Assembly (NCBI GenBank): GCA_963714175.1
Contig: CAVQNN010000011.1
Coordinates: 111,686-175,685, forward strand
DNA: 64,000 bases
Direction: 5' to 3'
Source: an uncultured Actinomycetes bacterium
Lineage (GTDB): Bacteria; Actinomycetota; Thermoleophilia; RBG-16-64-13
Below are positions 10,035 to 35,644 of the stretch, one piece after another. Both the position numbers and the translations under genes were made by a program. The notes beneath the pieces were generated by a model. The model was not told the DNA's origin. It made no database searches and saw only the letters and a list, made by a program, of their open reading frames with translations. Position 1 is the first letter of the stretch. The number at the start of each line of letters is the position of its first letter.

Positions 10035-10044
10035 GGCTTCCTCC

Positions 10045-10866: not shown

Positions 10867-10918
10867 GCCCTGGCCCGTTCCCTTTCCTTGCCGCGCATGT
10901 CGGCAGGGAGAATATCAC

Positions 10919-11512: not shown

Positions 11513-11644
11513 CTGCGGTCGATGACGAGATCGCCGTCGCTCTATGACTCCGGTTCATGCCACCGTCCTTTCGCTGCCCAGAGGTTGCCGGGCGCAGTGT
11601 ATCCAGCATCCGCGGGGGCTGTCAACCATGAGCGCCACGCGGGT

Positions 11645-12788: not shown

Positions 12789-12909
12789 CGATAGCCGCGT
12801 TTGGAGGACGAAGACAGGCTAATATCGCCGCAAATCGCCATGGAACCTTTTTGGCGCCCACGACATCTGCTATCTTGTCTTGTCTTCAATTCCAGGAGTT
12901 TGACCCTTC

Positions 12910-14747
12910 TTGAACAATCAACGCCTCACGGAGAAACGCAAGCGGCGCCGTAAGCGACTCGCCGTGCTCATCGGCGTGGGGTCCGTCGTGGCCATCGTGG
13001 TGCTGGCTATCGTAATCGACTCCGCTCTCTACTACAACAAAGTCCACACCGGGGTCAAGGTCTCGACCCTGAGCCTCGGCGGCCTCACCCGCGATGAAGC
13101 CACTGCCGCCCTCACAAGGTGGGTCGAGGACGCTCAGGAAAGCCCTGTGGTCCTCACAAGCGGCGATGGCACCTGGCCCGTCATGCCCGAGGATGTGGGC
13201 ACGAAGATCGATATCGAAGGCGCGGTCTCTGCAGCCATGGACGTCAGCCGCAGGAGCAACTTCGTGGTCGACCTCTTCAAGCGCTGCAAGCTGTACTTCT
13301 GCCGACGAGGAGATCGCTCTCGCGGGAACAGTCGACAGCGCCAAGATGGACGAAGTCTTGGGCGCGATCGCCGAGGAGCTCGACATCCCGCCGGTCAACG
13401 CTGGGCTGGCAATCGACGGCGCCAAGATCAAGGTCATCGAAGGGCAGAAGGGCACCGTGGTCGATCAGGACTCCCTGCGCGAATCACTCAAGGCCGTGCT
13501 CTTCACTCTCCACTCCACCGAGCTGGAGATACCGATGACGGTCAAGGAGCCGGAGGTCCAGGCCGACGACACCCAGGCCGCGCGCGAGGCGGCTGAGACC
13601 ATGGTCAGCGCCTCCGTGAAGCTGACCAGCGGTGAGAAGACATGGACGTTGTCTCCTGAGGATATCGCCTTGTACATGGACTTCACGTCTGAGGATCAGG
13701 GCGGCGTGTCTACGCTGGTGCCTTACCTCTCCGCTGAGAAGATGGCTCCTTTCTTCGCCGATATCGCCGATGGAGTAGCGACGGAGCCGATCAGCGCCAC
13801 CTTCGACAGCGACGGGTCGAAGGCCTGGGTCGTACCAGGCGTCGTGGGAAAGAAGCTCGATGCCGAGAACACCGCGGTCGCCCTGACGGCTGCCGCTCTC
13901 GAGGCCACCGGACGAAAGGCCGAGGCGGCGGTGACGACCGCCGAGCCCGAGCTGACCACTGAGGAAGCCAAGGCCATGGGCATCGCGGACAAGCTGAGTG
14001 GCTTCACCACCGAACCGTACGCCGGCACCTCCGACAGGCAGCACAACGTCCGCCTCACCACCAAGCTAGCAAGCGACGTGTTCCTGGCGCCGGGAGAGGT
14101 ATACAACTTCCTTGAGCTGGTCGGGCCACGCACGGCGGAACGTGGATTCAAACAGGCTAAGGGCATCGTCGGGCAAGGTGTGCTGGAGGACGTTCTGGGG
14201 GGCGGCATCTGCCAGGTGTCCACCACCATCTTCAACGCCGCGTTCTTCGCTGGGCTGGAGATAGTAGAGAGATGGAACCACTCGCTCTACATCAGCCACT
14301 ATCCAAAGGGCAGAGATGCCACGGCCACCGGCACCCCCGAAGACGGGAAGAACTTGCGCTTCAGAAACGATACCGACCACTACATCTGGGTCCGAGGGGT
14401 CTCCGACGGAGTCACCACGACCTTCAACATCTACGGCACCTCCGATGGCCGCAAGGTGAGCCATACCACCAGCGACTTCTACGACAATGTGGCCCAGACC
14501 CAGACCAGCGTCACCAACACGTCGCTGGGTCCCGGGACGACCGTCATACAGAGCTCTGGTCAGCCGGGCAGGACGTGCACGGTCAAACGCACGGTCACCT
14601 GGCCGGATGGGACCTCGAAGACCGACAAGTTCGTCAGCAGATTCCCGATGTATCCGAAGGTGATAGAAGTGGGCAGCGGCGACCACAACCACCAGCACGA
14701 CGATCCCGGGCTCGAGCACGAGCACGACGGACTTCATCGAATTCTAG
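12910..14747 (+). CDS. VanW-domain protein with N-terminal membrane anchor (apparent frameshifts; C-terminus uncertain)
   Basis: TTG start at 12910. Basic N-terminus plus a TM helix. The frame switches near 13300 into ORF 13094.., which carries the VanW domain (GICQVSTTIFNAAFFAGLEI…RFRNDT). That frame has no stop until 15268, and a shifted Thr/Ser-rich tail ends at a TAG near 14745-14747. Confidence 0.7.
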
Positions 14748-14773
14748 GGTGTCTCGGGGCGCTCGGCGCCGCC

Positions 14774-15321
14774 TCAGACCTGGTAGTACGCTCCCCGCGC
14801 GCACGCCCGGCACAGGGTCTCACCGTTCTCGACCACCTCGCGCGCGTCCTGCACCTTCTCGCCGCAGCGCTCGCAGGTCACCGTGTGAGACGGGCTACCC
14901 GGTTTGTCTTCCTCGGGGATAGTCATCTTCACCGGAGTGCAGGTGAAGAGCTGTTCGTCGGCCCAGTCCTTCCACAGTTCCAGCGGATCGGTGTCCCGCC
15001 CGGCGTGCGGCACCTCCGGCCTGGGAGCCACTCGAACGGCACGCTCGGTGGCCAGATCGACGAAGGTAGCCGCCATCTTGCCGTAGTCGACCCACTTGAG
15101 ACGCCGCCGCCCGAGGGTCACTCCAGCGACCACGCTCACGGCGTCGCTGGCGCAGCGATCCATCTCGACGTAGACCAACAGGTCACGGTACGACTGGGGG
15201 TCGTCGATCCCCAGTTCGCGACAGCCGTAACGCGCCATGCGCACTCCCATAACCATCCCATGGCATAGGTGACCATGGAAGGCCTGGGCGGCCTCCAGAT
15301 CCTTCTCGAGAGAGCGCATGG
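14774..15321 (-). CDS. FmdE/FwdE-family (formylmethanofuran dehydrogenase subunit E-like) zinc-binding protein
   Basis: An internal ATG at 15321 gives MRSLEKDLEAAQAFHGHLCHGMVMG… plus C-terminal CERCGEKV…CRAC zinc-ribbon cysteines. The upstream part of the listed ORF is a non-coding-looking extension. Confidence 0.75.
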
Positions 15322-15336
15322 GCCGACCTCCTGGGG

Positions 15337-15906
15337 CTACTTGAATTCCAGAGTGATGACGTCCTTGACCCAGATCTTGCTTTCCAAGCCGGGGAGGACC
15401 ACGTTCACCTTGCCGTCGTCGCTGATGGCAAGCAGAGCGTCTGGGCTCCACTGGATGTCCATAAGGGAGATCTCGGTCACGAAACCGTCGGCGTGAGCAG
15501 TCATTGCAAGCCTGGAGGCGTCACTCTGGACGCCGAAGATGGTGAGCAGATCGCTGAAGCGTACGCCTCGATAGTCCTGCTTGCCCAGCGCCGGGTCATC
15601 GATGCTTATGGTAACAGGGCTCAGATCTTCCAGATCGGAGGCAGTCAGAGTCATGGGATTGTCGATCAGTCCCTTCACCTCGACGACGCCGGTCTCGCCC
15701 TCGGGGACCGTGCTGGTCGTGCCATCGCTGACGAGTGGCCCTGCCGCGGAAGCCGTTGTCGGGGTATCCGAACCGGCAGCCGTGGTCGGGGTGCCCGAAG
15801 CAGAGGTCGTGGTGGCCGAACCGTCGCAGGCACAGACAAAGACAGCCAGCCCGGCCAAGAGCAGCACGGCTGCCAGCACGAGATAGCGGGTTTGGCGGAG
15901 TGTCAT
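15337..15906 (-). CDS. lipoprotein with sulfite-oxidase-like molybdopterin-binding (Oxidored_molyb-like) domain
   Basis: 189 aa with a signal peptide and a lipobox LAVFVCAC, then a Thr/Ser-rich linker. The domain VKGLIDNPMTLTASDLEDL…GVRFSDLL…VVLPGLESKIWVKDVITLEF follows. Confidence 0.7.
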   Translation of the reverse strand: MTLRQTRYLVLAAVLLLAGLAVFVCACDGSATTTSASGTPTTAAGSDTPTTASAAGPLVSDGTTSTVPEGETGVVEVKGLIDNPMTLTASDLEDLSPVTISIDDPALGKQDYRGVRFSDLLTIFGVQSDASRLAMTAHADGFVTEISLMDIQWSPDALLAISDDGKVNVVLPGLESKIWVKDVITLEFK

Positions 15907-16099
15907 CCTCGAGTCTCCTTGTCGATCGTGTGCAGAGACGTTGGTCCCGTTGGTCCATAGAGCCCCAAGACTTTAGCATCGATGCTCGAGTCGGGCCGCC
16001 GCGGCCGGGGATACCTTGCGTCCACAACGGCGCACCGGTCACGCAGAAATCGTGGCCCGCACGGGAACCAAGCGCGTCGCAGTATCCGTCACCGTCTGC

Positions 16100-16339
16100 G
16101 GCGTGCCATCTTTGACGGCGTGAAGCCGTGAGTGCGTTCCTCGACACGCGCAGCCCTTGTTTTCGTTGTGTCCGAGGTCGATTGGTTGGTGCTATGCTTG
16201 GGTATATGGTCCTTCGGCACTGGAATGGGATTTCGATGGACGGGGGGGCGTAGACACCGCGCTCAAAGCTTCAAACAATCCGTTTCCAGAGTGGATGTCG
16301 ATTCGCTTTCACTAGTACACGGAATGGGAGGTCGGAAGC
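16100..16339 (+). promoter_or_regulatory. putative promoter and long 5' leader of SLH gene A
   Basis: 433-bp non-coding gap. A TTGACG -35-like hexamer lies at 16112-16117. There is a GGGAGG RBS before the ATG at 16340. S-layer genes typically have long leaders. Confidence 0.3.
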
Positions 16340-19300
16340 ATGAAGAGAAAGACGGTCCTGCTACTGCTGGTTCTGGGGGTTGCGATAGGAGTCCTTGTCG
16401 CCCCAGGGGTGGCCCTGGCGAGTTGGTCGGATATCAGCGACGCTGCCTGGGTCTCGCAATACGGAGTCACCGCGGCTCAGGTGGACACGGTGGCCGATGG
16501 CTACCCAGATGGGACTTTCAAACCAAGTGCTCAGGTGACACGGGGTCAGTTCACGAAGATGGCTGTGAACGGCCTCGGCGTGCCTGTTCTGTCGCCTTTG
16601 ACTCCCACCTTCTCCGACGTGCCGCGCACCCACATCTTCTACACCCACATCGAGGGAGCCAATGCGGCCGGGCTCGTGAACGGCGTTGGCGGGGGCCTCT
16701 TCACTCCGAGCGCGCCTATCTCTCGTCAGCAAGTGGCGACCATTCTGGCCCGCTGGCTTTCGGAAGCGGAACTTGACGCGCTTGGCTACATCGCCGGTCC
16801 GGCAGGTACACAGTACCCGAGTCTGAGCGCCTGGTATGCGGCTCAGGGCGCGACGGCGCTTGCGTCGTTCTTCGACCAAGCGAGCATCGCTACCGTTCAC
16901 AGGCCGGGAGTGGCCTACCTCGCCGCCAGAGGCATAGCTCAGGGCTCCAGCGGCTACTTCACTCCGATGTCTAACATCACGCGGGCGCAGGCCGCCGTGC
17001 TGGTACTGCGCGTTCTGGACGAGTCCGATGACTTCGCCGTTCTCACCCCCACGGTCACCGATGTCAATCCTGACAACGGTCCTGCCACAGGCGGCACCAC
17101 GGTGGTCATAACCGGCACCAACTTCACGGCCGGCGCGACCGTCAAGTTCGGGGCCGTTAGCGCTACCGGTGTGGATGGTCGACAGCGCGACGCAGATCAC
17201 GGCCGTCTCACCCGCCGGCACCGCCGGCACCACGGTGCAGGTCGCGGTAACCACCGGGGCCGGCACCAGTGCCAACACAGCGGCCGACAACTTCACCTAC
17301 AACGACGGCCCAACGGTCACCATCAACCAGGCGGCGTCTCAGGCCGACCCGACTCATACGTCGCCCATCAACTTCACCGTCGTGTTCAGCGAGACAGTCA
17401 CTGACTTCGCCACCGGCGACGTGACTATCACCGGTACCGCTCCCGGGACGTTGGTCGGAACCGTCACGGGTTCCGGCAAGACCTACAACGTGGCCGTCAG
17501 CGGGATGACTGGGAGTGGAACGGTGATCGCCTCGATCGCCGCGGGCAAGGCGCATAACGCAGCCGGCAAGCCAAATGTCGCCTCGACCTCGACCGACCAC
17601 ACCGTCACGTACGACGCCGGCCCAACGGTAACCATCAACCAGGCCTCGGGTCAGGACGACCCGACCCATACGTCGCCCATCGACTTCACCGTGGTCTTCA
17701 GTACGACGGTGACCGACTTCGACGACAAAGCTGACGTGACGATTACCGGCACCGCCGGCGGGACGAAGACGGTGGACCATCACCGGCTCCGGCAAGACCT
17801 ACAACGTGGCCGTGAGTGGGATGACCACGGACGGCACAGTGATCGCCTCGATCCCCGCCGGTGTGGCGAAGGACGCTTCCTCCAACACGAACGCCGCCTC
17901 CACGTCGACCGACCATACGGTTACCTGGACTCAGACCGGCCCGGTCATCACCTCGCTCACTGATTCCGCCGGCGGCGCTACCGAGAACAACACGGTGACT
18001 ATCAAAGGCACCGGCTTCGGCAACGACGAGGACGAAATAACGGTCATGTTCGGTGCCGTTGAGGCCCTGGTAGAGGATGTCAACAGTTCGGGCACGACAC
18101 TCGAGGTGGAAGCTCCCGACGGCGTGAACCACACCGTGGTGGACGTTCGGGTCATCACCGACGAGGGCACGAGCCCCAACACGCAGGCCGACGACTATGC
18201 CTACGGCGAGCCGGTGCTCACCTCTCTGGTACCCGCCTCAGGTGATACGACTGGCGGCAACAAGACGATCATTACCGGCACAGGCTTCACCGCCGACGCG
18301 AGGGTCTACTTCGACGGCGACCAGGTAAGCAGCTCCAAGGTCTCGGTCGACAGTCCTACCAAGATCACGGTGGTGGTACCGGCCGGCACCGGCACCGACC
18401 AAGTCACAGTCAGGAACGATCAAGGCTTGAGCAACGAGCTGGACTACGACTACGACGCCGATGCTCCCTACATCACCTCTCTCAGCAAGAACGCGGGGGT
18501 CGCTGGGGGCGGCAATACGATAACCATCAACGGCGGCAACTTCATAACCGCCGGGCTCGAGGTTTGGTTCGGAAGCGAACAGGTGCCCTCTGGCGACCTG
18601 ACGCGGAACAGCTCCACCAAACTCACCGTGGAAGTGCCGGGTGGTACCGCTGGTACAACGGTGGACGTCCAGGTCGTCACGGATGACGGCACCAGCCCAG
18701 ACACCCCGGCCGACGACTACGCCTACGGCAAGCCGACCATCACGGGACTTGATCCTGATGTCGGCGATCCTCTCGGCGGCACCGTGGTGATCATCACCGG
18801 CACCGGTTTCACCCTCGATTCGACTGTCACCTTCGGTGGCGTTTCGGCCGAGGTCGTGTCGGTCAACGCCACCAACACCCAACTCACGGTGATCGCCCCC
18901 GAGGGCGACGACGGTGACACGGTGGACGTCAGAGGTCACGAACGACGCGGGCACAACACCGACCCAGCGACGACGACTTCACCTATGACGCGGACTACAT
19001 CCGTCCCGACCGTTAGGCCCTCAGACCCGGACAGGGGCCCATGGCAGGCGGCACCGCGGTGACCATCACCGGCACGAACTTCTTCGACGGATCGACGGTC
19101 AAGTTCGGGACGAAGTCGGCCACGAGACGTCGTGGTGGTCAATGAGAACACCATCACCTGCGACGTCGCCGTCCGTACGCGCCGCCACAACATGCAGGTC
19201 AAGGTCACGAACGTCTACGGCTACAGCGTGAACATCTCGGCCGACAACTTCACCTACATCGCCGGCCCGACGGTCACCATCAATCAGGCCGTGGCCCAGG

Positions 19301-20876
19301 CCGATCCGACCGGCTGCGTCGCCGATCAACTTCACCGTGGTCTTCAGCGAGTCGGTGGCCGACTTCGCCACCGGTGACGTGACACTCACCGGCACCGCTG
19401 AGCGCGACCACCGCGACCGTCACGCCGGCTGGTCGCGGCACCACCTACAACGTGGCCGTGAGCGGGATGACCGGAGACGGCACGGTGATCGCTTCGATCG
19501 CCGCGGGTGTGGCGCACAACGGCGCGGCACAGGCGAATGCGGCCTCCACCTCGGACGACCACACCGTTACCTACAACAACGTCGGCCCAACGGTCACCAT
19601 CAATCAGGCCGTGGGGCAAGCTGATCCGACGGCTGGGTCGACTATCAACTTCACCGTGGTGTTCAGCGAGTCGGTACTCGACTTCGCCACCGGTGATGTG
19701 ACACTCAGCGGAGGTGCCGGAGCGACGACCGCGACCGTGACTGGTTCCGGCACCATCTACAACGTAGCCGTGACCGGGATGACCACGGATGGCACGGTCA
19801 TCGCCACGATCGGCGCAGGTGTGGCCCACAACGGAGCCGCGCAGGCCAACGCCGCCTCCTCCTCGACCGACAACACCGTCACCCGCGACACCACCGGTCC
19901 GACGGTCACCATCAATCAGGCTGTGGGCCAGGCCGACCCCACCAGCGCGTCGCCCATCAACTTCACCGTGGTGTTCAACGAGTCGGTGGCCGACTTCGCG
20001 GCGGCTGACGTGACGCTGGGCGGTACCGCCGGAGCGACGACCGCAATAGTCACCGGATCCGGCACTACCTACAACGTGGCCGTGAGTGGGATGGATACCG
20101 ACGGCACGGTCACTGCTTCGATTGCCGCTGGGGTTGCACATGACACCGCCGGCAACGCTAGCGGCGGCTCGACCTCAACCGACAACGAGGTCACCTGGAG
20201 CGACCCCGCTCCTACGGCCACTGTCGACGAAGCGGTGGGCCAACTCGATCCGACCAGCGATCCGGAGATCCTCTTCACAGTGGTCTTCAGTGAACCGGTC
20301 ACGGGCCTTGCTGCCGGCGACTTCAACGTTGGAGGCTCGGCGGCCAGCTCGGTCACAAATGTCGCCGGATCTGGTGCGACATACACGGTCACCGTGACCG
20401 CCACCAGTGCGGGCACCGTGACTCTTGACCTGCCTGGTGGCACGGTGGTTGACCTGGGCGGAAAAGCCAACACGGCTGCGACCCCCATCGACAACAGCGT
20501 CACTGAAATCCTTATGGGCGCTGACGTCGACACCGCCCAGTACAAGCTGGGCAACGCCGGAACCTGGACAGCCTTCCCCGGCGTCCAGACCCAGTTCTCC
20601 GCCACCTACGTCAGCGACACCGACCTGCGTGTGAGAGTGCTGGATCAGTTTGGCGACCCACTCCTCAGCACCAATGTCTCGGCGGTGTTTCCCCGCTATG
20701 AGCGAGCGGAAGTCCTCATTCCCCTCGTGAAGACGGTCATTGCGCCTGACAGCACTACTACCGATGGCGCGGGTTACCTCTACTGGAGCAACCAAGGCAC
20801 CGCCGGCGCCATGTACTACTTCGTCCGGCTGGGCTTGGATCTCGACGGCGTCCTCGGAGTGTTCGATGCCATCTGA
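16340..20876 (+). CDS. giant S-layer/cell-surface protein A: signal peptide, 3 SLH, IPT/TIG domains and about 106-aa Ig-like tandem repeats (about 1500 aa, multiple apparent frameshifts)
   Basis: The chain of ORFs 16340.., 17169.., 17806.., 19132.., 19452..20876 shares one domain logic. The N-terminus is MKRKTVLLLLVLGVAIGVLVAPGVALASWSDISDAAW and the SLH motifs match copy C. There are TIG motifs (TVVITGTNFTAGATVKFG) and repeats GPTVTINQA-x-QADPT…FTVVFSE…YNVAVSGMT-x-DGTVIASIAAGVA. The C-terminal domain is shared with copies B and C. Confidence 0.8.
17290..20530 (+). repeat. coding tandem repeats (period about 318 bp, about 106 aa; at least 6 copies in two blocks) inside SLH gene A
   Basis: Near-identical DNA blocks begin ggcccaacggtcaccatcaa(c/t)cagg… at about 17290, 17626, 19265, 19583, 19899 and 20210. 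They are interrupted by an IPT/TIG block at about 17800-19130. Confidence 0.6.
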
Positions 20877-20981
20877 TCCCTGTCTGAGGAAGCACAGTTA
20901 TCCTGGGGAGGACGCCTGATCCAGCAAGCGTGATCCCGTCAGGGCTCCCAGAAAGCCCTGATCAGGTCGACACCGACCACA

Positions 20982-21013
20982 AAGAGGCCCGCTCCGGCGG
21001 GCCCCTTTCCTTT
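20982..21013 (+). terminator. rho-independent terminator after SLH gene A
   Basis: GAGGCCCGC-TCCG-GCGGGCCCC hairpin followed by a TTTCCTTT tract. Confidence 0.7.
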
Positions 21014-21139
21014 GCCGGGCGTGTCGCGCCGGCGGGTGGCGCGGAACCTCAGGCGGCTTCGCTCTGTCTGAGCCTTGTGCGCCCGGACGCAGGGTTACCC
21101 ATGAGCAGGGCTTTGTGCGCCGGCGTCGAAGCGGTTTTG

Positions 21140-21299
21140 AACGAGGGTCACCGTTCTTGACGCTCGCCTTATGCGCTTCTGCGTAGTGTGACCGGGCGAC
21201 CGTGACCCTATGGTTCTTGCCTGCACAAACCGACGCGATGCGGGAATCGCTGCTGCTACCCGGGTAGCACTGCGGGAAATGGAAGAGGAGGAAGCGAGT
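21140..21299 (+). promoter_or_regulatory. putative promoter/leader of SLH gene B (shares a conserved leader motif with gene C)
   Basis: TTGACG at 21157-21162. The conserved leader ctgcgggaatcgctgctgctacccgggtagcactgcgg contains the palindrome GCTACCCGGGTAGC. A GAGGAGG RBS precedes the ATG. Confidence 0.3.
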
Positions 21300-24200
21300 A
21301 TGAAGAAGAAGTCAATCCTGCTTATGTTAGTTGTGGGAGTCGTGTTCGCACTGTTCGTGGCTCCCAGCGTGGCTCTGGCGAACACATGGACGGACATCAC
21401 CGACGCCCAGTGGGTCGAGATGTACGGAGTCACGGCAGCTCAAGTGGACACGGTCGCCGATGGGTATGGCGACGGGACTTTCGGCCCCGGCAATCAAGTG
21501 ACCCGCGGCCAGTTCACCAAGATGTCCGTCAACGGTCTGGACGTAGCTGCAGAAGACGCCGGCTTCGCCCACCTTCACAGATGTGCCCACGAGCAACATC
21601 TTCTACTCTTACATCGAGGGAGCGGCGGCGGCCGGGCTCGTCAATGGAACCGGCAGCGGCAAGTTCAGCCCAAATTCGGCGATCAGCCGTCAGAACGTGG
21701 CCGCGATCTTGGGCCGCTGGCTCTCGCAAGCCGAATTGGACGCGCGTGGCTACCTGGTCGGTGCCACCGGGACCCACTACGCGAGCATCGACGCCTGGTT
21801 CGCGGCTGAGGGCACGGCGCAGTTGGCGATCTTCACCGACAGAGTCGTCCGTCAGCGAGAAGATGAAGCCCTGGGTGGCCTACCTCGCGTATCTGGGCAT
21901 ATCCAAGGGCTCCAACGGCCTCTTCAGCCCGGCCTCCAACATCACCCGGGCGCAAGCAGCGGTGCTGATTCTGCGCACGCTTGACGTTGGCAAGAGCTTC
22001 GGGGCAACAGTCCCAACTGTCACCTCCATCAACCCGACCACCGGCGCAGCCGCGGGTGGCACCGTGGTGCTCATCACCGGCACCAACTTCACCTCCGACG
22101 CAACGGTCAAGTTCGGCACGAAGGCCGCCACCAATGTGACCTTCAACAGCGCGACCCAGATCAGCGGCGACTTCGCCCGCCGGCACAGCCAACACGACGG
22201 TGCAGGTCTCGGTCACAACCACGGCCGGCACCAGCGCCAACACGGCGGCGGATGACTTCACCTACGGGAGCGCGGTACCGACTGTCACCGCTCTCGGCAA
22301 GAGCGGCGGGGCCCGCCGCGGGTGGCATGAGGTGACCATCACCGGCACCAACTTCACCTCCGACGCAACGGTCAAGTTCGGCACTGTCGCCGCAACCAGC
22401 GTGACCTACACGAGCGCGACCAAACTCACGGCGGTCGCCCCCGCCGGGACCGAAGGCAGCACGGTAGACGTCCTGGTCACTACCCCGGTTGGCACCAGTA
22501 CCAACACCTCCGCAGACAACTACGCCTACGGCAAGCCCGTTGTCAGCTCGATCAGCCCGGTGACCGGACCCGTCGCGGGTGGTACCTCGGTGACCATCAA
22601 CGGCACCGGCTTCACCGATGACGCAACCGTCATGTTCGGCCCAACGAACGTGACGTCGGCCAATGTAACGGTGGACAGCCCCACGAAGATCACGGCGAAG
22701 TCCCCGGTCGGCACTGCCGGCAAGATGGTGCAGGTCTCGGTCACGAACGATGCGGGCACCAGCGCCGACACCACCAATGACAACTTCACCTACGCGGGGA
22801 CCGGTCCCAGCATCTCCTCCCTCACCCCATCCGCGGGCGACTCCGGCGGCGGCGACGAGGTGGTCATCAAGGGCGTCAACTTCCCCACCGACGACGATGA
22901 CGAGCTGACGATCTACTTCGGCACCAAGTTGGTCGACCCCGACGACATCGAGCTCGACACCGCCACGCAGATGACCGTGGAGAGCGCGCCCGCGCCGGTG
23001 GCGGAGTACACGGTGGTCGACGTTTCCATCGTCACCGAGGACGGCACCAGCGCGAACACTTCCGCTGACGACTACAGCTACGGCGAGCCGGTCATCACAT
23101 CGATCAGTCCCGAACTTCGGCGACCCCGCGGGCGGATACAACATGATCATCACCGGCACGGGATTCACCGCCGATGCGAAGGTCTTCTGGGATGGCGACG
23201 CGTTGGCCAGCTGCGCAAGTTCACGGTCAACGGTCCGACTCAGATCACGGTGGTCGTTCCCGCCGGCGACGACGGCGACTCGATCGATGTGATGGTCGAG
23301 AACGACGAGGACGAAAGCAACGAGGAGGAGTTCGAGTACGACGAGGATCTGCCGTATATCACCTCCATCAGCCCAACCGCGGGCGACTCGGATGGCGGCG
23401 ATACGGTGACATCAACGGCACCAACTTCCCCGCGTCGGATGAGGACGACGTGCACGGTCTACTTCGGCACCGAACGGTAGACGAGGACGACTCACCTCGA
23501 CAACTACCACCAAGATCGTGGTCAAGGCGCCCGCACCCGTCGAGGCCGACGACGACACCACCGAGGTGGTCGACGTCACGGTCGAGACCGACGAGGGCGA
23601 AAGCCCGGACACGCCCGCCGACGACTACAGCTACGGCAGGGCCACGAGTCGAATCCATCGAACCGAACACCGGCGATCCCGCCGGCGGCACCGTGGTGAC
23701 CATCACCGGCACCGGCTTCGTGAAGGGCGTCTCGGTCTACTTCGACTCGACTCTGGTGGACACGAGCAATGTCACGGTGGTCAGCCCCACGAGATCCGAG
23801 TGTCGCCCCCGCGGGTGACTGACGGCGACGACGCTGCGAGTCAAGGTCAAGAACGCCGAGGGCACCAGCGCCGACGGTGACAGCGACGACGACGAGTTCA
23901 CCTACGACGACGACTACGACGCCCCGATCGTACGAGCGGATCACTCCCGACGAGCGGTCGTTGCTGCCGGCGGCACGGAGGTGACCATCAGCGGAAGCAA
24001 CTTCACGATCGGCGCCAGACGTCTACTTCGGATCTACCCAGGCGACTGACGTGGACCTACGTCAGCTCCACTGAGCTGACAGGCCATCGCGCCCGTCGGC
24101 ACCGAGGGCAAGAAGGTGCACGTCAAGGTCAAGGTCGGCGACAATACCAGCGACACGGACTACGACACTGACGCCTTCACCTACGTCGCGGATGCTGACC

Positions 24201-24784
24201 CCATCATCCGATCTCGATCGGCGCAGCCCGGCCTACGGTCCGATCAAGCGGTGGCAATACCGTGGTCATCATCGGCACCGGTTTCAGCAGCAAGCCAACG
24301 GTCAAGTATCGGTGCGGCAGGACGGTGTCGTCCGTCGGAAACGTGAAGTCGATAGCACCACGCAGCTCGAGTGATCGTTCCGGCGCTTGCTCCGCGGACC
24401 GCCGAAGACGGGTAACGTCTCCGTCACCAACACCGAGGACACCGACATTCTCGAAGATGACGCTTACACCTACTTCACCGTCAACGTCGAGTACTCGGAC
24501 GGACAACGGCATGAACCTGGACGGAGTTCACGGTGACACCTTGGAGCAGCGGACACGAGATCGATCTCCGGCTCCAAGTGCTCGACGGAGACGGCGACCC
24601 GATCGACCAGCACGAATCTCTCGGCCTGCAATCCCCTGCTCTACTGGTACAAGTCGTCCACGGACAAGTGACACCAAGGCCGCACAAAGCGCTTACGACC
24701 GACTCCGATGGCTACCTCTACTGGAACGATTTCGGCGGGTTCACGGGCAAAACCTACACGGTGTGGGTAGGGTTTGACCTGTGA
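21300..24784 (+). CDS. giant S-layer/cell-surface protein B: signal peptide, 3 SLH, about 10 IPT/TIG domains and the shared C-terminal domain (at least 10 apparent frameshifts)
   Basis: The N-terminus MKKKSILLMLVVGVVFALFVAPSVALANTWTDITDAQW… is nearly identical to copy C. Domain order is co-linear with copy C, but the reading frame hops among ORFs 21210.., 21583.., 21386.., 22200.., 23174.., 23518.. …24533..24784. Confidence 0.75.
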
Positions 24785-24892
24785 ACGACAGCGATACCGC
24801 TCGACCAGCGCCGACTGTCTACGAAGTAAGTCTCTGTGATCTGGGCAGCAGCTAGCGGCACACCGGTCCCAAGCGACCACATAGCAACGACG

Positions 24893-24924
24893 AAAGAGGC
24901 CCGCTCCGGCGGGCCTCTTTGTTT
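24893..24924 (+). terminator. rho-independent terminator after SLH gene B
   Basis: AAAGAGGCCCGC-TCCG-GCGGGCCTCTTT hairpin followed by GTTT. Confidence 0.75.
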
Positions 24925-25039
24925 GCCGGGTCTCCCGGAGCCCGTTCCACACCCTTCCGCACTCCTTCCGCGCTTGCGCCGCGCGAGCCCTTCCGAGACT
25001 CCCCGCCACGTCGAGCCCCTGGCGTCCTTGTACAGGGCT

Positions 25040-25220
25040 TTCCCTCTTGACGTCGAAGCGTTTCTCGAACGGGGTTCGCCGTCTCTGGCGTTCGCTCGCG
25101 CTCTTGTGCGTAGGACGGCCTGGCCGTGGAGCTACACGGCGGTCGTGCTCGCATGCCCATGAACTGCGGGAATCAATGCTGCTTCAGCGGTAGCGCTGCG
25201 TTGAATAGGAGGATTCAGGC
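25040..25220 (+). promoter_or_regulatory. putative promoter/leader of SLH gene C
   Basis: TTGACG at 25047-25052. The conserved leader tgcgggaatcaatgctgcttcagcggtagcgctgcg and an AGGAGG RBS precede the ATG. Confidence 0.3.
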
Positions 25221-28200
25221 ATGAAGAAGAGATCGATCTTGCTGCTGTTGGTCTTGGGAGTGGTCGCTGTACTGCTCGTAGCGCCCAGTGTGGCCCTGGC
25301 GGACACATGGACCGACATAGCCGATGCCCAATGGCAGTCGCTGTATGGAGTCACCGCGGTTCGGGTCGACTCGGTCGCCGACGGCTACCCCGATCACACC
25401 TTCCGTCCGACCAACCAGGTGACCCGTGCCCAGTTCACCAAGATGGCGGTGAACGGCTTGGGGGTAGCTCAGAAGACGCCGGCTGCGCCCACCTTCTCCG
25501 ACGTGCTGAAAAGCAACATCTTCTACTCCTACATCGAGGGTGCGGCAAGCGCCGGGCTCGTCAACGGAACCGGGGCCAACAAGTTCAGCCCCAACTCGGC
25601 CATCACGCGCCAGAACGTAGCCGCTATCCTGGCGCGCTGGTTGTCGGAGACCGAACGGGATGCGCGTGGCTTCATAGCCGGCGCGACCGGGACGCACTAC
25701 GCCAGTTTCGACGCCTGGTATGCAGGTGAAGGCGCGACGGAGTTGGCGGCATTCACCGATTCCTCGTCCATCAGCAGCAAGATGCGTCCCTATGTGGCCT
25801 ATCTCGCCGCCCGCGGCATCGCCAAGGGCTCCGACGGCCGCTTCAGCCCGGGCTCCAACATCACCCGGGCACAGGCCGCCGTGCTGATTCTGCGCACGCT
25901 GGATGCGGGCTCAGGCTTCGAAACGGCGGTTCCCACCGTCACCTCCGTAAACCCGAACACCGGTCCGGCCTCGGGCGGCACATCGGTGGTCATCACCGGC
26001 ACCAATTTCGCAGCCGATGCCACGGTCAAATTCGGGGGCGCGAGCGCCAGCGGCGTGACCGTCAACAGCGCCACGCAGATCACCGCGACCTCGCCTCCCG
26101 GCACCGCCAACGCGAAGGTACAGGTCTCGGTCACTACCTCGGCCGGCACCAGCGCCAATACGGCAGGGGATGACTTCACTTACGGCAGCCCGTTGCCCAC
26201 CGTCACCGCTCTCAGTCCGTCGGCCGGCGCAGCCGCGGGCGGCGAGCTGGTGACCATCACCGGCGCCAATTTCACCTCGGGTGCGACGGTCAAGTTCGGC
26301 ACCACCGCGGTACCAGCCGCCGATGTGACCTACACGAGCGCCACGGAACTCAAGGCCTATGCTCCCGAGGGCACCCCCAACACCACGGTGCAAGTCTCGG
26401 TCACGACCACGGAAGGCACCAGCGCTGACACCTCAGCAGACAACTACGCCTACGGCAAGCCGGTCGTCAGCTCGATCAGCCCCGCGACCGGACCAGCCGC
26501 GGGCGGCACCACGGTGACGATCAACGGCAGCGGTTTCACCGACGACGTCACGGTCAAGTTCGGCCTCACCACGGTGACCGCGGCCAATCTCACTGTGAAC
26601 AGCCCCACCAAGATCACGGCCAAATCGCCGGCCGGTACCGCCGGCACCAAGGTTCAGGTCTCGGTCACGAACGACGAGGGCACCAGCTCCGACACCATCA
26701 ACGACAACTTCACCTACGCGGGGACCGGCCCCAGTATTTCCTCTCTCACCCCGTCCGCCGGACATGCCGGCGGAGGTGACGAGGTGGTCATCCAAGGCAC
26801 CAACTTCCCCACCGATGAGAACGCCGATCTGGCGGTCTACTTCGGAACGGTGAAGGTCGACTCCAGCGACATCACGCTCGACTCCGCCACGCGGATGACG
26901 ATAGAGGGCGCCCCTGCGCAAGCGGCAGGCATCAAGGTGGTCGACGTCTCCATCGCCACTGACGGAGGCAGCAGCCTCAACACCCCTGCTGACGACTACA
27001 GCTACGGCGCCCCGGTCATCACGGCCATCACCCCGGCGGCCGGCCTGCCCGTGGGCGGGTACAAGATGGTCATCACCGGCACCGGATTCACCGCCGACAC
27101 CAAGGTCTACTGGGACCGTGACGCGCTGGCCGCTGCGAAGTTCACAATCGACAACCCCACCCAGATCACGTTGGTCGTTCCCGCGGGCGACGATGATGAC
27201 TCAGTGGAGGTGACCGTCGAGAACGATGAGGGCGAGAGCAACGTCATGGAGTTCGAGTATGACGAGGATCGGCCCTACATCACCTCTATCAGCCCGAACG
27301 CGGGCAACTACCTGGGCGGTGGTTCGGTGACCGTCAAGGGCATCAACTTCCCCACCGAGAAAGAGGATGTGACGGTCAAGTTCGGGACCAAGGCGGTCCC
27401 AACGACGGACATCACGTCGATCACCGCTACTCAGATCGTGGTGAAGGCGCCTGCGCCCCTGCTGGCCAGTGCCGACATCACGGAGGTGGCGGACATCTCG
27501 GTGCAGAGCGACGACGGTACCAGCCCCAACACGCCCGCCGATGACTACAGCTACGGCCGAGCCAGGGTCAAATCGATCGAGCCGAACGCCGGGCATCCCG
27601 AGGGCGGCGCCGTGGTGACCGTTGTCGGTCAGGGCTTCGTGGACGGCGTGTTGGTCCACTTCGGCACCACCCAGGTGCCCTACGGCAACATCACGGTAGT
27701 CAGCCCCACGCAGATCCGCGTGCTCGCACCTCCGGGTGACGACGGCGACAAGGTGCGGGTCAAGGTCACCAACGCCGACGGCGCGAGTATCGAGACCGAG
27801 AGCGTAGACGACGAATACCTCTACGACAGCGAGTACAACGCTCCTGTGGTCACGAGCATATCTCCGGACACCGGCCTGGCCGCCGGTGGCGCGGAGGTCA
27901 CGATCCTCGGGAAGAACTTCACCATCGGCGCCGAGGTCCGCTTTGGAGAGAGTGAGGCGACCGATGTGGAATATGTCGACTCCACCAAGCTCGTCGCGAC
28001 CTCACCGGCCGGCCCCGAGGGCAAGAAGGTGCACGTGGTGGTCGTAGTCGGAAACATGACCAGCGATGCGGAATTCGACACGGACGGCTTCACCTACGCC
28101 GCGGATGGTGATCCCATCATCACGGGTCTCAACGGCTCAGCGGAAGCCTATGGACCCAAGACCGGGGGCAACACTCTGATCATCACCGGCACCGGCTTCA

Positions 28201-28757
28201 GCAGCGAACCGACCGTCAAGATCGGCACCAGGACGGTGGACAGCGACAATGTGACGCTCAACAGCGCCACGCAGCTTTCCGTCATCGTCCCGGGCGTCGC
28301 CACCGTTGCCACCTACGACGTCAAAGTGACGAACACCCAGGACGACTACACCGTCGAGGACGCATACACGTACTTCACCATGGAGGTCGAGTACTTCTAC
28401 GGGACCAGTATCGGGCAGGCCGGGACGTGGCTACCCCTGGCCAACGAGCACTGGGCGCCAGCGGCGGTGACCAACATCCGGCTAAGGGTGGTCGACCAGG
28501 ATGGCGACGCTCTCGGCAACATAGATCTCTCGCACAGCTTCCCCCTGCTCTACTACTACAAGTCGGACTCTGACAAGGGCACGGTGGACCCGATCCAGGA
28601 TAAGACTGACATCCAGGGCTATCTCCACTGGCCCAGCTTCGGTGGGTCGTTCGCGGGCAAGAGCTACAGCCTGTCCCTCGGATTCGATGTGGACAACAAT
28701 GGCACCCTCACCGATGCCGACTACCGCAGAACCGTCTCGTGGGTCTGGGACATCTAG
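25221..28757 (+). CDS. giant S-layer/cell-surface protein C: signal peptide, 3 SLH, about 10 IPT/TIG domains and C-terminal domain (intact, 1178 aa)
   Basis: Single uninterrupted ORF with a signal peptide. SLH motifs: FSDV…IEGAASAGLVNG, …RQNVAAILARWL, …RAQAAVLILRTL. TIG repeats: PxxTSxSPxxGxxxGGTxVTIxGxxF…VxFG. The C-terminal 120 aa are homologous to the A and B tails. Confidence 0.9.
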   Translation: MKKRSILLLLVLGVVAVLLVAPSVALADTWTDIADAQWQSLYGVTAVRVDSVADGYPDHTFRPTNQVTRAQFTKMAVNGLGVAQKTPAAPTFSDVLKSNIFYSYIEGAASAGLVNGTGANKFSPNSAITRQNVAAILARWLSETERDARGFIAGATGTHYASFDAWYAGEGATELAAFTDSSSISSKMRPYVAYLAARGIAKGSDGRFSPGSNITRAQAAVLILRTLDAGSGFETAVPTVTSVNPNTGPASGGTSVVITGTNFAADATVKFGGASASGVTVNSATQITATSPPGTANAKVQVSVTTSAGTSANTAGDDFTYGSPLPTVTALSPSAGAAAGGELVTITGANFTSGATVKFGTTAVPAADVTYTSATELKAYAPEGTPNTTVQVSVTTTEGTSADTSADNYAYGKPVVSSISPATGPAAGGTTVTINGSGFTDDVTVKFGLTTVTAANLTVNSPTKITAKSPAGTAGTKVQVSVTNDEGTSSDTINDNFTYAGTGPSISSLTPSAGHAGGGDEVVIQGTNFPTDENADLAVYFGTVKVDSSDITLDSATRMTIEGAPAQAAGIKVVDVSIATDGGSSLNTPADDYSYGAPVITAITPAAGLPVGGYKMVITGTGFTADTKVYWDRDALAAAKFTIDNPTQITLVVPAGDDDDSVEVTVENDEGESNVMEFEYDEDRPYITSISPNAGNYLGGGSVTVKGINFPTEKEDVTVKFGTKAVPTTDITSITATQIVVKAPAPLLASADITEVADISVQSDDGTSPNTPADDYSYGRARVKSIEPNAGHPEGGAVVTVVGQGFVDGVLVHFGTTQVPYGNITVVSPTQIRVLAPPGDDGDKVRVKVTNADGASIETESVDDEYLYDSEYNAPVVTSISPDTGLAAGGAEVTILGKNFTIGAEVRFGESEATDVEYVDSTKLVATSPAGPEGKKVHVVVVVGNMTSDAEFDTDGFTYAADGDPIITGLNGSAEAYGPKTGGNTLIITGTGFSSEPTVKIGTRTVDSDNVTLNSATQLSVIVPGVATVATYDVKVTNTQDDYTVEDAYTYFTMEVEYFYGTSIGQAGTWLPLANEHWAPAAVTNIRLRVVDQDGDALGNIDLSHSFPLLYYYKSDSDKGTVDPIQDKTDIQGYLHWPSFGGSFAGKSYSLSLGFDVDNNGTLTDADYRRTVSWVWDI

Positions 28758-28789
28758 CAGCGTTCCGGTCTCCGACGACCAGATAGCAG

Positions 28790-28827
28790 AAACCAGAGAG
28801 GCCCGCTTCGGCGGGCCTCTCTGGTTT
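28790..28827. terminator. strong bidirectional hairpin terminator between convergent SLH gene C and the minus-strand cluster
   Basis: Perfect palindrome AAACCAGAGAGGCCCGC-TTCG-GCGGGCCTCTCTGGTTT, followed by T-rich sequence on both strands. Confidence 0.8.
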
Positions 28828-28882
28828 CGTCAGACTCTTGGGGCTGAGGGCTGCTGAAGAAGGAAGTCCCCCAAGGGGTGGT

Positions 28883-29293: not shown

Positions 29294-29974
29294 CTAACTC
29301 TGCGTCGTGCCGCTGTCCGGCGGGGCAGCTTGCGGCGGCACTGCGCCGGTCACTGCATCGGCCGGAGCCGGACTCGGCTGGGCACCCACTGTCGGCGCGC
29401 CGGCAGGCGTTGGCATGTACGGTGGCGGACTGATGGGCGGGCTAGGTGGCGGACTCATGGCGGCTGCAGCCGCAGTCGAGGCCGGGGACAGGTAGGTCTC
29501 GGTGCCGCAGTAAGGGCAGCGGACCAAGCCTTTCCCGGCCAGCTCCACCTGACCGCCGCAGTTGGGGCAGCTACCCTCCTTGATCTGAGCGGCCTCAGCC
29601 GATACCAATTCGCCCTTCTCCCAGTTCACATACCCTCTGAAGAGGTCCTTGCCGATGAGGTCATAGACGTAGGCCTTGACCTGCTCGCGGGTCAGGTTGC
29701 ATTCGATGGCCAGATCGGCGACCCCCACCCGTCCCCGGGTCATCACCGCGTTGAGGATGGTCCGCTCCTTGTCCGCCTCGCTCTCGGCCTTGATCTCTCC
29801 CTTCGAGGCCAACAACAGGTAGAGCCCCACGGCCACGAACGGCAGCGAGAACAACACCAGACCCAGGACATATCCTGCCTTGCTCCCAGTCGCCTCGGTC
29901 AGGCCGACCACCAGCCAGGCGGCGACTCCCAGACCGACGATGATCAGCACGATCCCGAGAATCCTGGTCCGCAT
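29294..29974 (-). CDS. membrane protein with cytoplasmic wHTH-like segment and zinc ribbon; Pro-rich C-terminus
   Basis: 226 aa with two N-terminal TM helices and CPNCGG…CPYCG. Confidence 0.75.
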   Translation of the reverse strand: MRTRILGIVLIIVGLGVAAWLVVGLTEATGSKAGYVLGLVLFSLPFVAVGLYLLLASKGEIKAESEADKERTILNAVMTRGRVGVADLAIECNLTREQVKAYVYDLIGKDLFRGYVNWEKGELVSAEAAQIKEGSCPNCGGQVELAGKGLVRCPYCGTETYLSPASTAAAAAMSPPPSPPISPPPYMPTPAGAPTVGAQPSPAPADAVTGAVPPQAAPPDSGTTQS

Positions 29975-30056
29975 CGTTTCCTCCTGGTTGCTCTGCTATC
30001 GCTACAGCCGACGCCCGGCCCGCGGGGCCGGGCGCCGGTATGGATTCGCTCTCCAC

Positions 30057-31908
30057 CTATCCTGCGCGGAAGCCGCCTCCGCCGCCTCCGCCGGAGAAGC
30101 CTCCCCCGAAACCGCCGCCGCCACCGGAAAATCCGCCGCCACCGAAGGCACCGCGCTTGCCGCCGCCGCTGGACGACGGGACCGAGGTCAGGGCGCTGGA
30201 CATGTTGCTCAGGCTGCTGAACAGACCGTCGGATATGCTCTCGAGGCTGAAGCCTCCTCCAGACGATCCACCGGCATTGGTGAGACCGCCGCCCAGACCT
30301 CCTCCAAGACCGCCCGTGGCGACCGGTCCGGAGCCTCCCGGGAAGGGAATGATCACCGGCGGATGATACCAATCGGGAGAAGAAACGGTCAGGCTTTCGA
30401 AACGCCTCACCCAATCCTTCTCCACGCCGAAAGCGATGGCATAGGGCAGGTACTTCTCGAAGCTCTCCTTCGCCGTCTCCATCTCCTGGAACCGGGTGAG
30501 ATCCTTGAGGTAGTTGCGGAACGCCTCGCACTTGCGCTGCTCCTGGGCGCCTTTGGGCGTCCGCTGCGGCATGCGAGGCGCAAACACCCATACGATGATC
30601 ACAGACACGATCGAACCGAACATGAACCAACCCCACCCGGAGATGTCGGCCATGGCCATGATGACCGTCAGAAGCCCGAGGATGACCGCGACGACGAAAC
30701 CATAGCCTACCCAGCGCTCCCGGGCCTTCTTGGGATTGCTGAAGAACAGCTTGCGACTCGTCACGTCTTCGTAGACCTGATTGACGATCGGCTCGACGTG
30801 CGTGTAGAAGTGGTTCTTCAGTTCGGCGGTCGTGACCTGGTCGGGGTGCTTCGCGTCGAAGAGGGACTCCGCGACCTTCTTCTCGAAGCCCTGCAGATCG
30901 TCGAGCGCCTTCCGGCGCGTGAAGATGGTCACCGCTTTGCGTGCTGCTCCCTCTTTCGCCGTGTCGGTGATCTCGATGTAGCCACGCCGGGCCAGGTCGA
31001 CGATGGTGGCGATCACCTCTTTGGTGTCGACCTTCTCGTCGATGAGCGCTCCGGCCAGACCCGGAGACAGATCCGCGGGAGGCTCGGCTCGCGTACTTGG
31101 CGTAGACCGCCGCCGGCTCATCGCGCCCACGCCGGCGCCAGATCAAGAGCATGCCGAGGAAGAAGAGAATGGGGAGAAGGAACCCTATCTTGGGTATCAG
31201 GAATTCCGCCAGACGCCGCGCCGTCCACGTGAACTTGACCACGCCCTTGGGGAACCCGGTCACGATCCAGAAGTTGGTGTACGGAGGGATGTCTGAGGCC
31301 TGATACACCATGGTGGAGGCGGCCGGCGAGGTGACGTTCGTCTCCACGCCATATCCGGCCTGGACGGCCTGAGTCATGTCTCTCCGAGGGAACCGATCCC
31401 GGCAGCTTGACGGTGGCCTTGACCGCCCCGATGGGCACCGGGGTGTCGGCGTCGAACACGTACCACCTCAGCTCGTCGCCCTCGTCGCAGAACATGACCA
31501 CGTTCTTGGCCCGATAGTGGATGGTCCAGGTCGACGAGGTGTCGGTGAGGTCGAAGTTCATCTGGATGTAGAGAGTGTCGCCCTCTTTGAAGGTGCTGTA
31601 CGTCCCCGGCGAATCACCCTTGGGTAAGGGGGTACCGTTGGCGTCGCGGACTTCGATGTCGGTGATGCCGCCCGTGTTTTCGGTCGGTATGTCGCGGGCG
31701 ACGAAGTGATAGTTGCCCTCGAAGGTGAAGGTGACCATCTCGTCGACGATCACGTCGCCGTTCTCCTGGACGTCGAGTAGCACGTCCATGTTGTCGATGC
31801 GCCAATCCTTGGCCGCGGCCGAGGCCGTCGGACCGGCGACGCAGCGCCAACAGGGCGCAGGCAAGCGGCCAGGAGCGCGAAGCCCCAGAGGTGACGCCGA
31901 TGGCTCAT
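30057..31908 (-). CDS. DUF2207-family membrane protein with Gly-rich C-terminal tail (at least 3 apparent frameshifts)
   Basis: ATG at 31908 gives a signal-like MSHRRHLWGFALLAAC. The extracellular DUF2207 N-domain lies in frame 31118..32884, the TM plus cytoplasmic part in 29944..31377 and 30057..31130 (LSPGLAGALIDEKVD…DLARRGYIEI), and the tail is (GGGF)n. Confidence 0.7.
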
Positions 31909-33042
31909 TGCTTGTCGCCCTCGGGAGCCTCATCGGCCTTCTCGGCTTGCTGCAGCGCGCTCGAGGCTCCGCCGGAGCCGCGGCCGGAGCCGTCAGGTTC
32001 TGACCGCAGTTGGGGCAGAATTTCGAGCCCGCCGGCAGGGTCGCCTTGCACTTCGGGCACGTCACCGTCGCGGCCAGATTCGCGCCGCAGTTCGGGCAGA
32101 ACTTGCTGCCGTAGGGGATGTCCTGGCTGCAGTTGGGGCAGCGCACCTTGGGCTGCGCTCCACCGGCCATGGCCTGCTGCAGCATGCCGGGAATCATCAT
32201 GCCCAGGCCGGCGCCGGCGCCCAGGCCCAGACCGGCCGTGGCCGCCGAGCCGATGTCGGTGCCGCCCCCTCCTCCGCTGCCGCCGCCTCCCTTGGCCAGG
32301 TCGCCGATGGCCTGCGCGGCCTTGTACTGGAAGTAGCGGTCCATGCCGCCGACGGCTTCCATGCCGGAACGCTCGTCGATGCGTTTCTGCACGTCCTCGG
32401 GCGGCGAGATGGCGTTGACCAGAAAGTCGACGATCGCCAGGCCGTACTGGGCGAAGTCGTCCCTGATCCGGGCCTTGAGACCGGCGCCCAACTCGTCGAA
32501 GTAGCGCGGCAGATCGAGCACGGAGTCGAGGCTCTCACCCAGGATGTCCGCGAGCCGCCCGATGATCACGCCCCGCAGGAAGTCCTCGATCTGGGCGTTG
32601 GTGTAGATGCCGCGCGTGCCCACGAGCTTGACCACGAACAGCTTGGGATCGGTGATCTGGAAGGTGTAGATGCCGTTGGAGCGCAGTCGGATCATCTTGA
32701 ACTCGGAGTCGCGGAACAAGATGGGCTCGACGGTGCCCCACTTCAGGTCGGTGAAGGTCCGCTTGCTGACGTAGAAGACCTCGCACCGGAAGGGTGTGTC
32801 GCCGTAGAGAGGCGTGGTGAAGATCGACGGTGAGCAGGGGTATGTTCTGCGTGGCCAGGGTGTGCCGGCCCGCGTCGAAGACATCGTAGGCCTTGCCGTC
32901 TCTGAAGAAGACAGCCCATTGGCTCTCGCGCACGATCAACTGGGAACCGAGCTTGAACTCGCCCGAGCCCTGCTCGGGGATGCGATGGGCCATCTCGTTC
33001 GCCTTGTTCGTCAACGTACTCGATGAGATCCATGAGGGCCAT
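31905..33042 (-). CDS. SPFH/band-7 domain protein of the COG4260 type with C-terminal double zinc ribbon (apparent frameshifts)
   Basis: The start MALMDLIEYVDEQ (ORF 32743..33042) shifts to LIVRESQWAVFFRDGKAYDVF (ORF 32535..33014) and then to the 588-aa frame (…RCPNCSQDIPYGSKFCPNCGANL…CPKCKATLPAGSKFCPNCGQNL). The stop TGA overlaps the DUF2207 ATG. Confidence 0.7.
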
Positions 33043-33137
33043 CGATTACCTCCCAGCTCCGGTGATGAGGTTTTCCCGCTCGGAGAAGCGGGCGTCCAAT
33101 GCTTCGATCCGATCGTCCAGGATACCGATGTCGGCGC

Positions 33138-33563: not shown

Positions 33564-33618
33564 GATCTCCCCTTTGCTCTATGTGACCGATCGAGCCCGC
33601 GCGTCGGGACTTCGGACT

Positions 33619-34306: not shown

Positions 34307-34310
34307 CAGA

Positions 34311-35527: not shown

Positions 35528-35644
35528 CCTGATAGTCTATCGCCGCGACCAGGTCTGACCTTGAATCCATCGCCTTGCGCCGACAGCGGCTTCCATGCCA
35601 GTCGCGGCGTCGGATACCGTCTGCGAGTCAGCCGAGGAGAATGG

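Follow-up and report, generated by a model that had tools for sequence, protein, structure and literature searches.

A 64-kb stretch of DNA from an uncultured Actinomycetota (called the window here; G+C 63-67%) carries a tandem array of three co-oriented, related genes for long surface proteins, named A, B, and C (Table 1). Each encodes a signal peptide, three SLH domains, runs of IPT/TIG domains, and an Ig-like domain at the C-terminus. We consider it likely that A, B, and C descend by old tandem duplication from one gene encoding a surface protein that is secreted and anchored to the wall, that all three copies are intact in the organism, a Thermoleophilia- or Gaiellales-like host, and that the many frameshifts found in A and B are assembly errors. 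The arrangement is ordinary for the lineage and is a further example of the known SLH-anchored, Ig-repeat surface proteins.

Three paralogous SLH-TIG genes

The open reading frame (ORF) map shows only C as an uninterrupted ORF, while A and B are split into pieces across all three frames. A tblastn search of the window with the C ORF matched A and B as two further collinear copies, and B can be aligned with C over its full length at 74% DNA identity. The preliminary description of this DNA, made before the present analysis, had proposed three co-oriented related genes of 4.5, 3.5, and 3.5 kb, and both the search and the alignment agree with it, including the positions. It had underplayed the frame breaks; three genes are present, but A is broken at 11 sites and B at ~27-28. 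It had also called the genes giant. The proteins are long, but at 1178-1509 aa they are only mid-sized for the family, in which homologs reach 1700-2060 aa.

In the product of gene C, a signal peptide (residues 1-27) is followed by three SLH domains (~30-225), nine TIG domains (~237-1040), and a C-terminal Ig-like beta-sandwich (~1045-1178). The Pfam matches are strong for both SLH (E 8.5e-27) and IPT/TIG (E 3e-113). A predicted model of the C-terminal domain has a predicted local distance difference test score (pLDDT) of 84, and filamin is among its matches, as are the S-layer proteins SbsB, SbsC, and Haloferax csg, suggesting a generic Ig-like sandwich.

Uncorrected fragments of A and B already match SLH and TIG, and those of A also Big_12. 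After frame correction, B follows the same plan as C: signal peptide, three SLH, nine TIG, and the C-terminal Ig-like domain. Corrected A runs from the signal peptide and three SLH domains through one TIG, two Big_12-like, five TIG, and four Big_12-like domains to the C-terminal Ig-like domain, and Pfam recognizes three SLH, six TIG, and Big_12 repeats in it. Across A, corrected B, and C the SLH triplet is matched with E-values of 1e-24 to 1e-27. TIG (PF01833) scores above the Pfam gathering score in all three, with 370 bits over nine stretches in C, 349 bits over nine in corrected B, and 207 bits over six in corrected A. The signal peptides are of one Sec type, MKK(R/K)SILLLLVLGV...VALA, and the C-terminal Ig-like domain of ~130 aa is common to all three (A vs C: 34% identity, E=1e-11). 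The shared signal peptide, SLH triplet, TIG runs, and C-terminal domain of the preliminary description are thus borne out by Pfam after frame correction and by the homology between the ends of A and C, as is its remark that A differs in having Ig-like (Big_12) repeats between the TIG blocks. It had also raised the possibility that domain searches would show neither SLH nor TIG domains; the profile search found both in all three genes.

The same array occurs in other strains. A 146-kb ENA metagenome contig (L001) has three genes in the same order, A', B', and C'. Of these, B' (P0004, 1165 aa) and C' (P0001, 1178 aa) are intact, and C is 93% identical to P0001 with zero indels. Over all of C' and the 3' 2.2 kb of B', a contig built independently in the Logan assembly of run ERR11571143 (L002) is gapless against L001 and agrees with it at 99.95%, so L001 is accurate over that part. 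A third strain, on a JGI metagenome contig (L080), has a B-type gene with an open frame of at least 965 aa; an intact C-type gene (P0003, 1173 aa) comes after it.

Frame breaks in genes A and B

Restoring the frame of A meant removing nine inserted bases and padding two deletions, at ~17174, 17770, 18931, 18965, 18999, 19016, 19125, 19162, 19194, 19315, and 19400, which left 0 internal stops. B was corrected with a protein-guided, frameshift-aware alignment in which the ortholog P0004 served as guide. This called for 27 frame corrections (22 insertions and 5 deletions), and a guide from the third strain gave essentially the same sites. The first three events in B are +1 insertions at 21549, 21841-21844, and 22164-22166; the breaks are dense from 23109 to 24847. 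The TAG stop of B at 24853 is in frame only once a 2-nt insertion at 24846 is removed. Corrected B retains one or two internal stops at most. Both stops from a DNA-guided correction are within the poorly aligned C-terminal part, and the protein-guided alignment leaves one, beside the frameshift near 23480. The third-codon-position GC of corrected B is 0.853, compared to 0.842 for intact C.

These frameshifts most likely stem from a metagenomic assembly, probably of long reads, whose accuracy is patchy. When the window is compared with L001, there are zero indels in the 3.5 kb of C and ~45 indel events in B. None of these falls within a stretch of three or more identical bases, and 16 of the 19 single-base insertions do not adjoin an identical base. 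Insertions outnumber deletions in B (22:5), in A (9:2), and in the two together (31:7). Bacterial pseudogenes typically show a deletion bias. A simulation of 200-300 neutral substitutions, the level that would go with so many indels, gave an expectation of 5-7 stops, and those observed were 0 in A and at most 1-2 in B.

Constraint on B was examined with a branch test on the three strain versions of the gene (B, B', and B'' of the third strain), with branch lengths estimated for each codon position. The window B branch has lengths of 0.065, 0.053, and 0.171 at the first, second, and third positions, giving ratios of 0.38 and 0.31 to the third. The intact B'' branch has ratios of 0.39 and 0.37, and intact C-type branches range from 0.29 to 0.40. 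The window B branch is also the shortest of the three. Since its ratios match those of the intact alleles, the window B lineage has been under constraint along the whole branch and has evolved as a translated gene. A polarization of the B/B' substitutions with C as the outgroup was considered unreliable and dropped in favor of this three-strain test, as third positions are saturated and conversion bias is possible.

The breaks are not confined to the array. Downstream, at window positions 29459-35588 (L001 14102-20230), the two assemblies are 88% identical and are separated by ~64 small indel events, which with few exceptions involve one base. In the blocks between these indels, the substitution level is 0.20 at the high-GC third-position phase and 0.06-0.08 at the others. 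This concentration at third positions points to purifying selection, so the indels would be technical in one or both assemblies. Pfam searches of other ORFs show unrelated genes of the window broken in the same way: aldehyde ferredoxin oxidoreductase (AOR) is in at least three pieces, PolX is split between HHH and thumb/PHP, and the N and C domains of DUF2207 fall in separate frames. The HATPase_c match of a histidine kinase breaks off at position 52 of 111, HerA covers 60 of 502 positions, and a flavoprotein covers positions 2-45 of 162. The zones with such genes are 7477-8640, 30057-32884, 37198-39369, 42794-44657, 47191-47997, and 48619-49790.

Several observations weigh against intact genes misread by the assembly and against the surface role assigned to them. 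The breaks are very patchy: the 3.5 kb of C, 16340-17173, and 19401-20850 are all free of them. The indels show no association with homopolymers, an unusual feature for common sequencing-error profiles. Compared with L001, the non-coding leaders have ~1 small indel per 100 nt, a density similar to that of the broken coding patches. In L001 itself, A' has two frameshifts within ~100 nt (L001 3800-3960) and was called as two proteins (861 and 614 aa), so this reference is not error-free either. The sigma-70 scan identified no promoter at the TTGACG sites in the leaders of A, B, and C, and no match to PS_pyruv_trans (csaB) was found among the ~50 window ORFs scanned with Pfam within the 64 kb. 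Finally, we infer the error explanation from the sequence, and we infer wall-polymer anchoring, lattice formation, and relative expression from domain families.

The frame breaks could instead mean that A and B are genuine decaying pseudogenes, that C is the sole functional surface gene, and that the other broken genes of the window reflect real genome degradation. The contrast between A and B, with 11 and ~27 frameshifts, and the adjoining C, with none, would fit this, as patchiness is what selection would give, and an indel density like that of the non-coding spacers, away from homopolymers, fits it as well. Decay predicts a loss of codon pattern, an accumulation of stops, a fall in third-position GC, and a deletion bias, and the data for A and B go against this: constraint on the window B branch is not relaxed, third-position GC of corrected B is undiminished, stops are almost absent where 5-7 were expected, and the indels are biased 31:7 toward insertions. 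The broken flanking genes keep their substitutions concentrated at third positions. For decay to have occurred, ~40 indels would have to accumulate in a very short time while hardly any substitutions arose, and the B-type gene is intact on L001 and open on L080. Because the stop, third-position GC, branch, indel-bias, and flanking-gene tests combine in this way, neutral decay of A and B appears very unlikely, and we regard the pseudogene explanation as a whole as unlikely.

If assembly error is the cause, automated annotation would wrongly split A and B or call them pseudogenes. The practical lesson is one of data quality, with ~40 frameshifts in two genes, and many more across the window, carrying the signature of sequence error.

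Expression signals, strain variability, and surroundings

Each gene has its own leader, ribosome-binding site (RBS), and terminator (Table 1). A GGAGG-type RBS is located 6-9 nt ahead of each ATG. The hairpin pattern GAGGCCCGC-N4-GCGGGCC has exactly three matches in the window, one behind each gene, against an expectation of 0.34. The near-identical terminator that the preliminary description had placed after each gene was therefore found as a triple pattern unique to the array, with folds of -21, -28, and -40 kcal/mol. Just 3' of the C terminator, at 28846-28876, the window has a 31-nt insertion relative to L001, GAGGGCTGCTGAAGAAGGAAGTCCCCCAAGG.

Table 1. Genes of the array with their upstream regions and terminator hairpins in the window
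Feature	Position	Strand	Properties
Upstream non-coding region of A	15907-16339	+	TTGACG at 16112; RBS GGGAGG at 16326
Gene A	16340-20876	+	corrected product 1509 aa; 11 frameshifts
Terminator hairpin after A	20981-21013	+	AAAGAGGCCCGC-TCCG-GCGGGCCCCTTTCCTTT; -20.9 kcal/mol
Leader of B	21014-21299	+	TTGACG at 21157; RBS GAGGAGG at 21287
Gene B	21300-24855	+	corrected product ~1176 aa; ~27-28 frameshifts
Terminator hairpin after B	24893-24925	+	AAAGAGGCCCGC-TCCG-GCGGGCCTCTTTGTTT; -27.6 kcal/mol, z = -4.3
Leader of C	24926-25220	+	TTGACG at 25047; RBS AGGAGG at 25208
Gene C	25221-28757	+	intact ORF, 1178 aa
Terminator hairpin after C	28789-28828	+	GAAACCAGAGAGGCCCGC-TTCG-GCGGGCCTCTCTGGTTTC; 18-bp perfect stem; -40 kcal/mol, z = -8.4

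The leaders of B and C are homologous to each other and to those of B' and C', so the leader was duplicated along with the gene. The upstream region of A, which adjoins a divergent lipoprotein-like gene (15337-15906, minus strand), is ~90% conserved with the orthologous leader in L001 and is not clearly alignable with the leaders of B and C. A comparison of the leaders with Rfam gave no credible family. In folding, the B and C leaders were no better than shuffled controls and the A leader was marginal (z -2.1).

The leader with a TTGACG hexamer and a strong RBS, as described preliminarily for each gene, holds in part. The hexamers and the RBSs are present, but the promoter call rests on a common hexamer, found 41 times in the window compared to 29.5 expected. 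A sigma-70 scan gave no promoter at any of the three TTGACG sites, with no acceptable -10 element after them. A shared TTGACG promoter was rejected as a candidate, since the B and C hexamers are at non-homologous positions of the leader alignment. The earlier view that A, B, and C form separate units, with a leader, RBS, signal peptide, and terminator for each, holds. Because the terminators, RBSs, and leaders are separate, it is supported that the genes form three monocistronic units.

On an evolutionary timescale the array is plastic, and the three genes differ in how much they vary between strains. At the DNA level, C is 92.5% identical to C', whereas B is 79% identical to B'. Third positions differ by 31% between B and B' compared to 14.6% between C and C', which suggests that the B alleles predate the separation of the strains. 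A and A' have a rearranged middle, and the last ~450 nt of A (20500-20956, against L001 5388-5789) cannot be aligned with A'. In the window, A ends in the C-terminal domain type of B and C; in L001, A' ends in an unrelated Ig-like domain. This difference reads as a strain-level domain swap. C is conserved across strains, and B together with the middle and end of A is hypervariable, a pattern that diversifying selection or allele replacement would be expected to leave in exposed surface proteins. The comparison with related genomes that the preliminary description had called for gave the same three-gene order in L001 and this contrast between a conserved C and a variable B. The contrast, including the swapped end of A, is a modest lead on diversifying selection in environmental Actinomycetota.

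Beyond these strains, relatives are distant. An exact look-up of the C protein in an assembly index gave no match. A scan of genome contigs with C alone found no relative, and a scan of metagenome contigs with the corrected B protein found none either. A genome-contig scan with an alignment found distant relatives only, at no more than 62% identity in the best segment, all of them metagenome-assembled Actinomycetota. The distant SLH-TIG relatives are labelled Gaiellales, Thermoleophilia, or Actinomycetes, and none is close. Many of their loci, in metagenome-assembled Actinomycetota genomes of Gaiellales/Thermoleophilia type (L005, L011, L012, L037, L043, L049, L050, L051, L063, and L067), have SLH genes in co-oriented groups of two or three, with a spacing of 3-5 kb. 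From these loci, tandem arrays of SLH surface-protein genes seem typical of the clade. SLH domains are frequent in Actinobacteria (PMC6801904).

Two further explanations of the array concern the copies themselves. The three copies could be an assembly artefact, a duplicated or collapsed repeat, and both the repetitive domains and the imperfect base-level assembly would lend themselves to this. However, the copies differ by ~26% in DNA and also in architecture, their longest shared exact run is 26 nt, the same three-gene order is found on the independent 146-kb contig L001, and the B-C junction is found on L002 and L080. We give an artefact practically no credence, and it is effectively refuted already. 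The array could also be an antigenic or phase-variation system in which C is the expression copy and A and B are silent, frameshift-tolerant archives that donate sequence by gene conversion. Tandem co-oriented surface paralogs, one intact and two interrupted, with mosaicism of A and hypervariability of B between strains, are what such a system might look like, and it would amount to vls/pilS-like surface variation in an uncultured actinobacterium. The preliminary description had pointed in a related direction in suggesting a cassette set open to recombination. That suggestion fails on the sequences of the copies: the paralogs are ~74% identical, identity among copies is at most 84% in any 300-nt window, the longest exact matches are 26 nt (B/C) and 23 nt (A/B, within the terminator), and no conversion tracts were seen. 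By these measures recent gene conversion has left no sign, and the copies offer little substrate for it. In cassette-type antigenic variation, long tracts are shared and silent copies carry no expression signals; here every copy has its own leader, RBS, start codon, signal peptide, and terminator. The codon-level constraint implies that B is translated, B-type copies are intact in other strains, and the sequence beside the array showed no recombinase and no invertible segment. An archive of silent copies is thus very improbable.

The region upstream of the array (8637-15268) contains envelope-related genes. On the minus strand are a polysaccharide deacetylase with three SLH domains (8637-10034), UppP/BacA (10045-10866), and a BirA-like ligase/repressor (11645-12736). 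A VanW/PG_binding_4/G5 protein begins at 13094 on the plus strand. Its ORF (13094-15268) stays open for ~500 nt past the last Pfam domain, antisense to an FmdE/zf-dksA gene (14774-15451, minus strand). An over-extended ORF or a lost stop codon probably accounts for this overlap; in that stretch the third-position GC phase fits the minus-strand gene. A sliding-window phase plot of third-position GC was too noisy for strand calls, and a phase-only version was used as a guide. Further upstream, at 3586-4911, one ORF joins DUF4126 (residues 13-181) to a protein-L-isoaspartate O-methyltransferase (226-405), which may reflect either a true fusion or a sequence error that has run two genes together.

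Predicted function and comparison with known systems

With three intact genes in the organism, each would be its own transcription unit with a leader, a strong RBS, and a Rho-independent terminator. The products would be exported via the Sec signal peptide and held on the cell wall by the N-terminal SLH triplet. In characterized systems, SLH domains bind a secondary cell-wall polymer that is pyruvylated. A chain of ~10-16 Ig-like beta-sandwich domains (nine TIG in B and C, six TIG and six Big_12-like in A) would then be projected outward, ending in the shared ~130-aa filamin/macroglobulin-like Ig domain. Such chains would either assemble into a coat resembling an S-layer or serve as fibrillar spacers or adhesins. 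True S-layer proteins self-assemble into a regular 2-D lattice over the cell and are expressed at a very high level, whereas fibrillar adhesins carry a distal adhesive or ligand-binding domain. No recognizable adhesive tip domain was found in A, B, or C, and the C-terminal domain looks like a plain Ig-like sandwich.

A conserved TRAE-like motif marks each repeat of SLH-anchored proteins; C has TRAQ, TRQN, and TRAQ, and A has TRGQ, SRQQ, and TRAQ. The SLH region of C also matches SLH structures of B. anthracis Sap (3pyw and 6bt4; E 2e-6 to 7e-6). On this reading, the array is useful for annotating a poorly known, uncultured lineage and for considering its cell envelope, and it is not surprising.

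In several known systems, surface-protein homologs are arranged in tandem or vary between strains. The array resembles C. fetus sap, Borrelia vls, and Neisseria pilS in having several tandem homologs. Variation there depends on long conserved tracts, with one expression site and silent copies that have no promoter. In contrast, the longest tract shared here is 26 nt, and every copy has a leader, RBS, and terminator. The C. difficile slpA cassettes are similar in that one locus differs between strains much more than the DNA around it does, as seen here for B (79% to B', compared to 92.5% for C and C') and for the swapped end of A. Anchoring in C. difficile is by CWB2, unlike the SLH anchoring here, and the variability described here comes from three metagenomic strains. 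The array also resembles the sap-eag pair of B. anthracis, in which neighboring paralogous genes for SLH-anchored proteins each have their own expression signals. Sap and EA1 switch by growth phase in B. anthracis. Unlike sap-eag, the array has three copies, and its crystallization domains are different.

As for the repeats, the long tandem TIG run in a secreted protein outside the cell is shared with fibrillar-adhesin stalks and with Paenibacillus CmoA, which consists of a vWFA domain and eight TIG domains (PMC5072692). CmoA has a vWFA head and no SLH anchor, whereas the array proteins have the SLH anchor.

SbsB and SbsC consist of an anchoring module, which is an SLH triplet in SbsB, and a chain of Ig-like domains. 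Like SbsB of G. stearothermophilus, the products of A, B, and C have a signal peptide and an SLH triplet followed only by Ig-like domains. They differ from SbsB and SbsC in that the repeats are IPT/TIG (PF01833) and Big_12, in number 10-16 compared to 6-9, and in the high-GC actinobacterial host; sequence similarity to SbsB and SbsC is confined to the SLH part. By this analogy, the plan of an SLH anchor with only Ig-like domains appears closest to an SbsB-type S-layer and is equally compatible with a fibrillar spacer.

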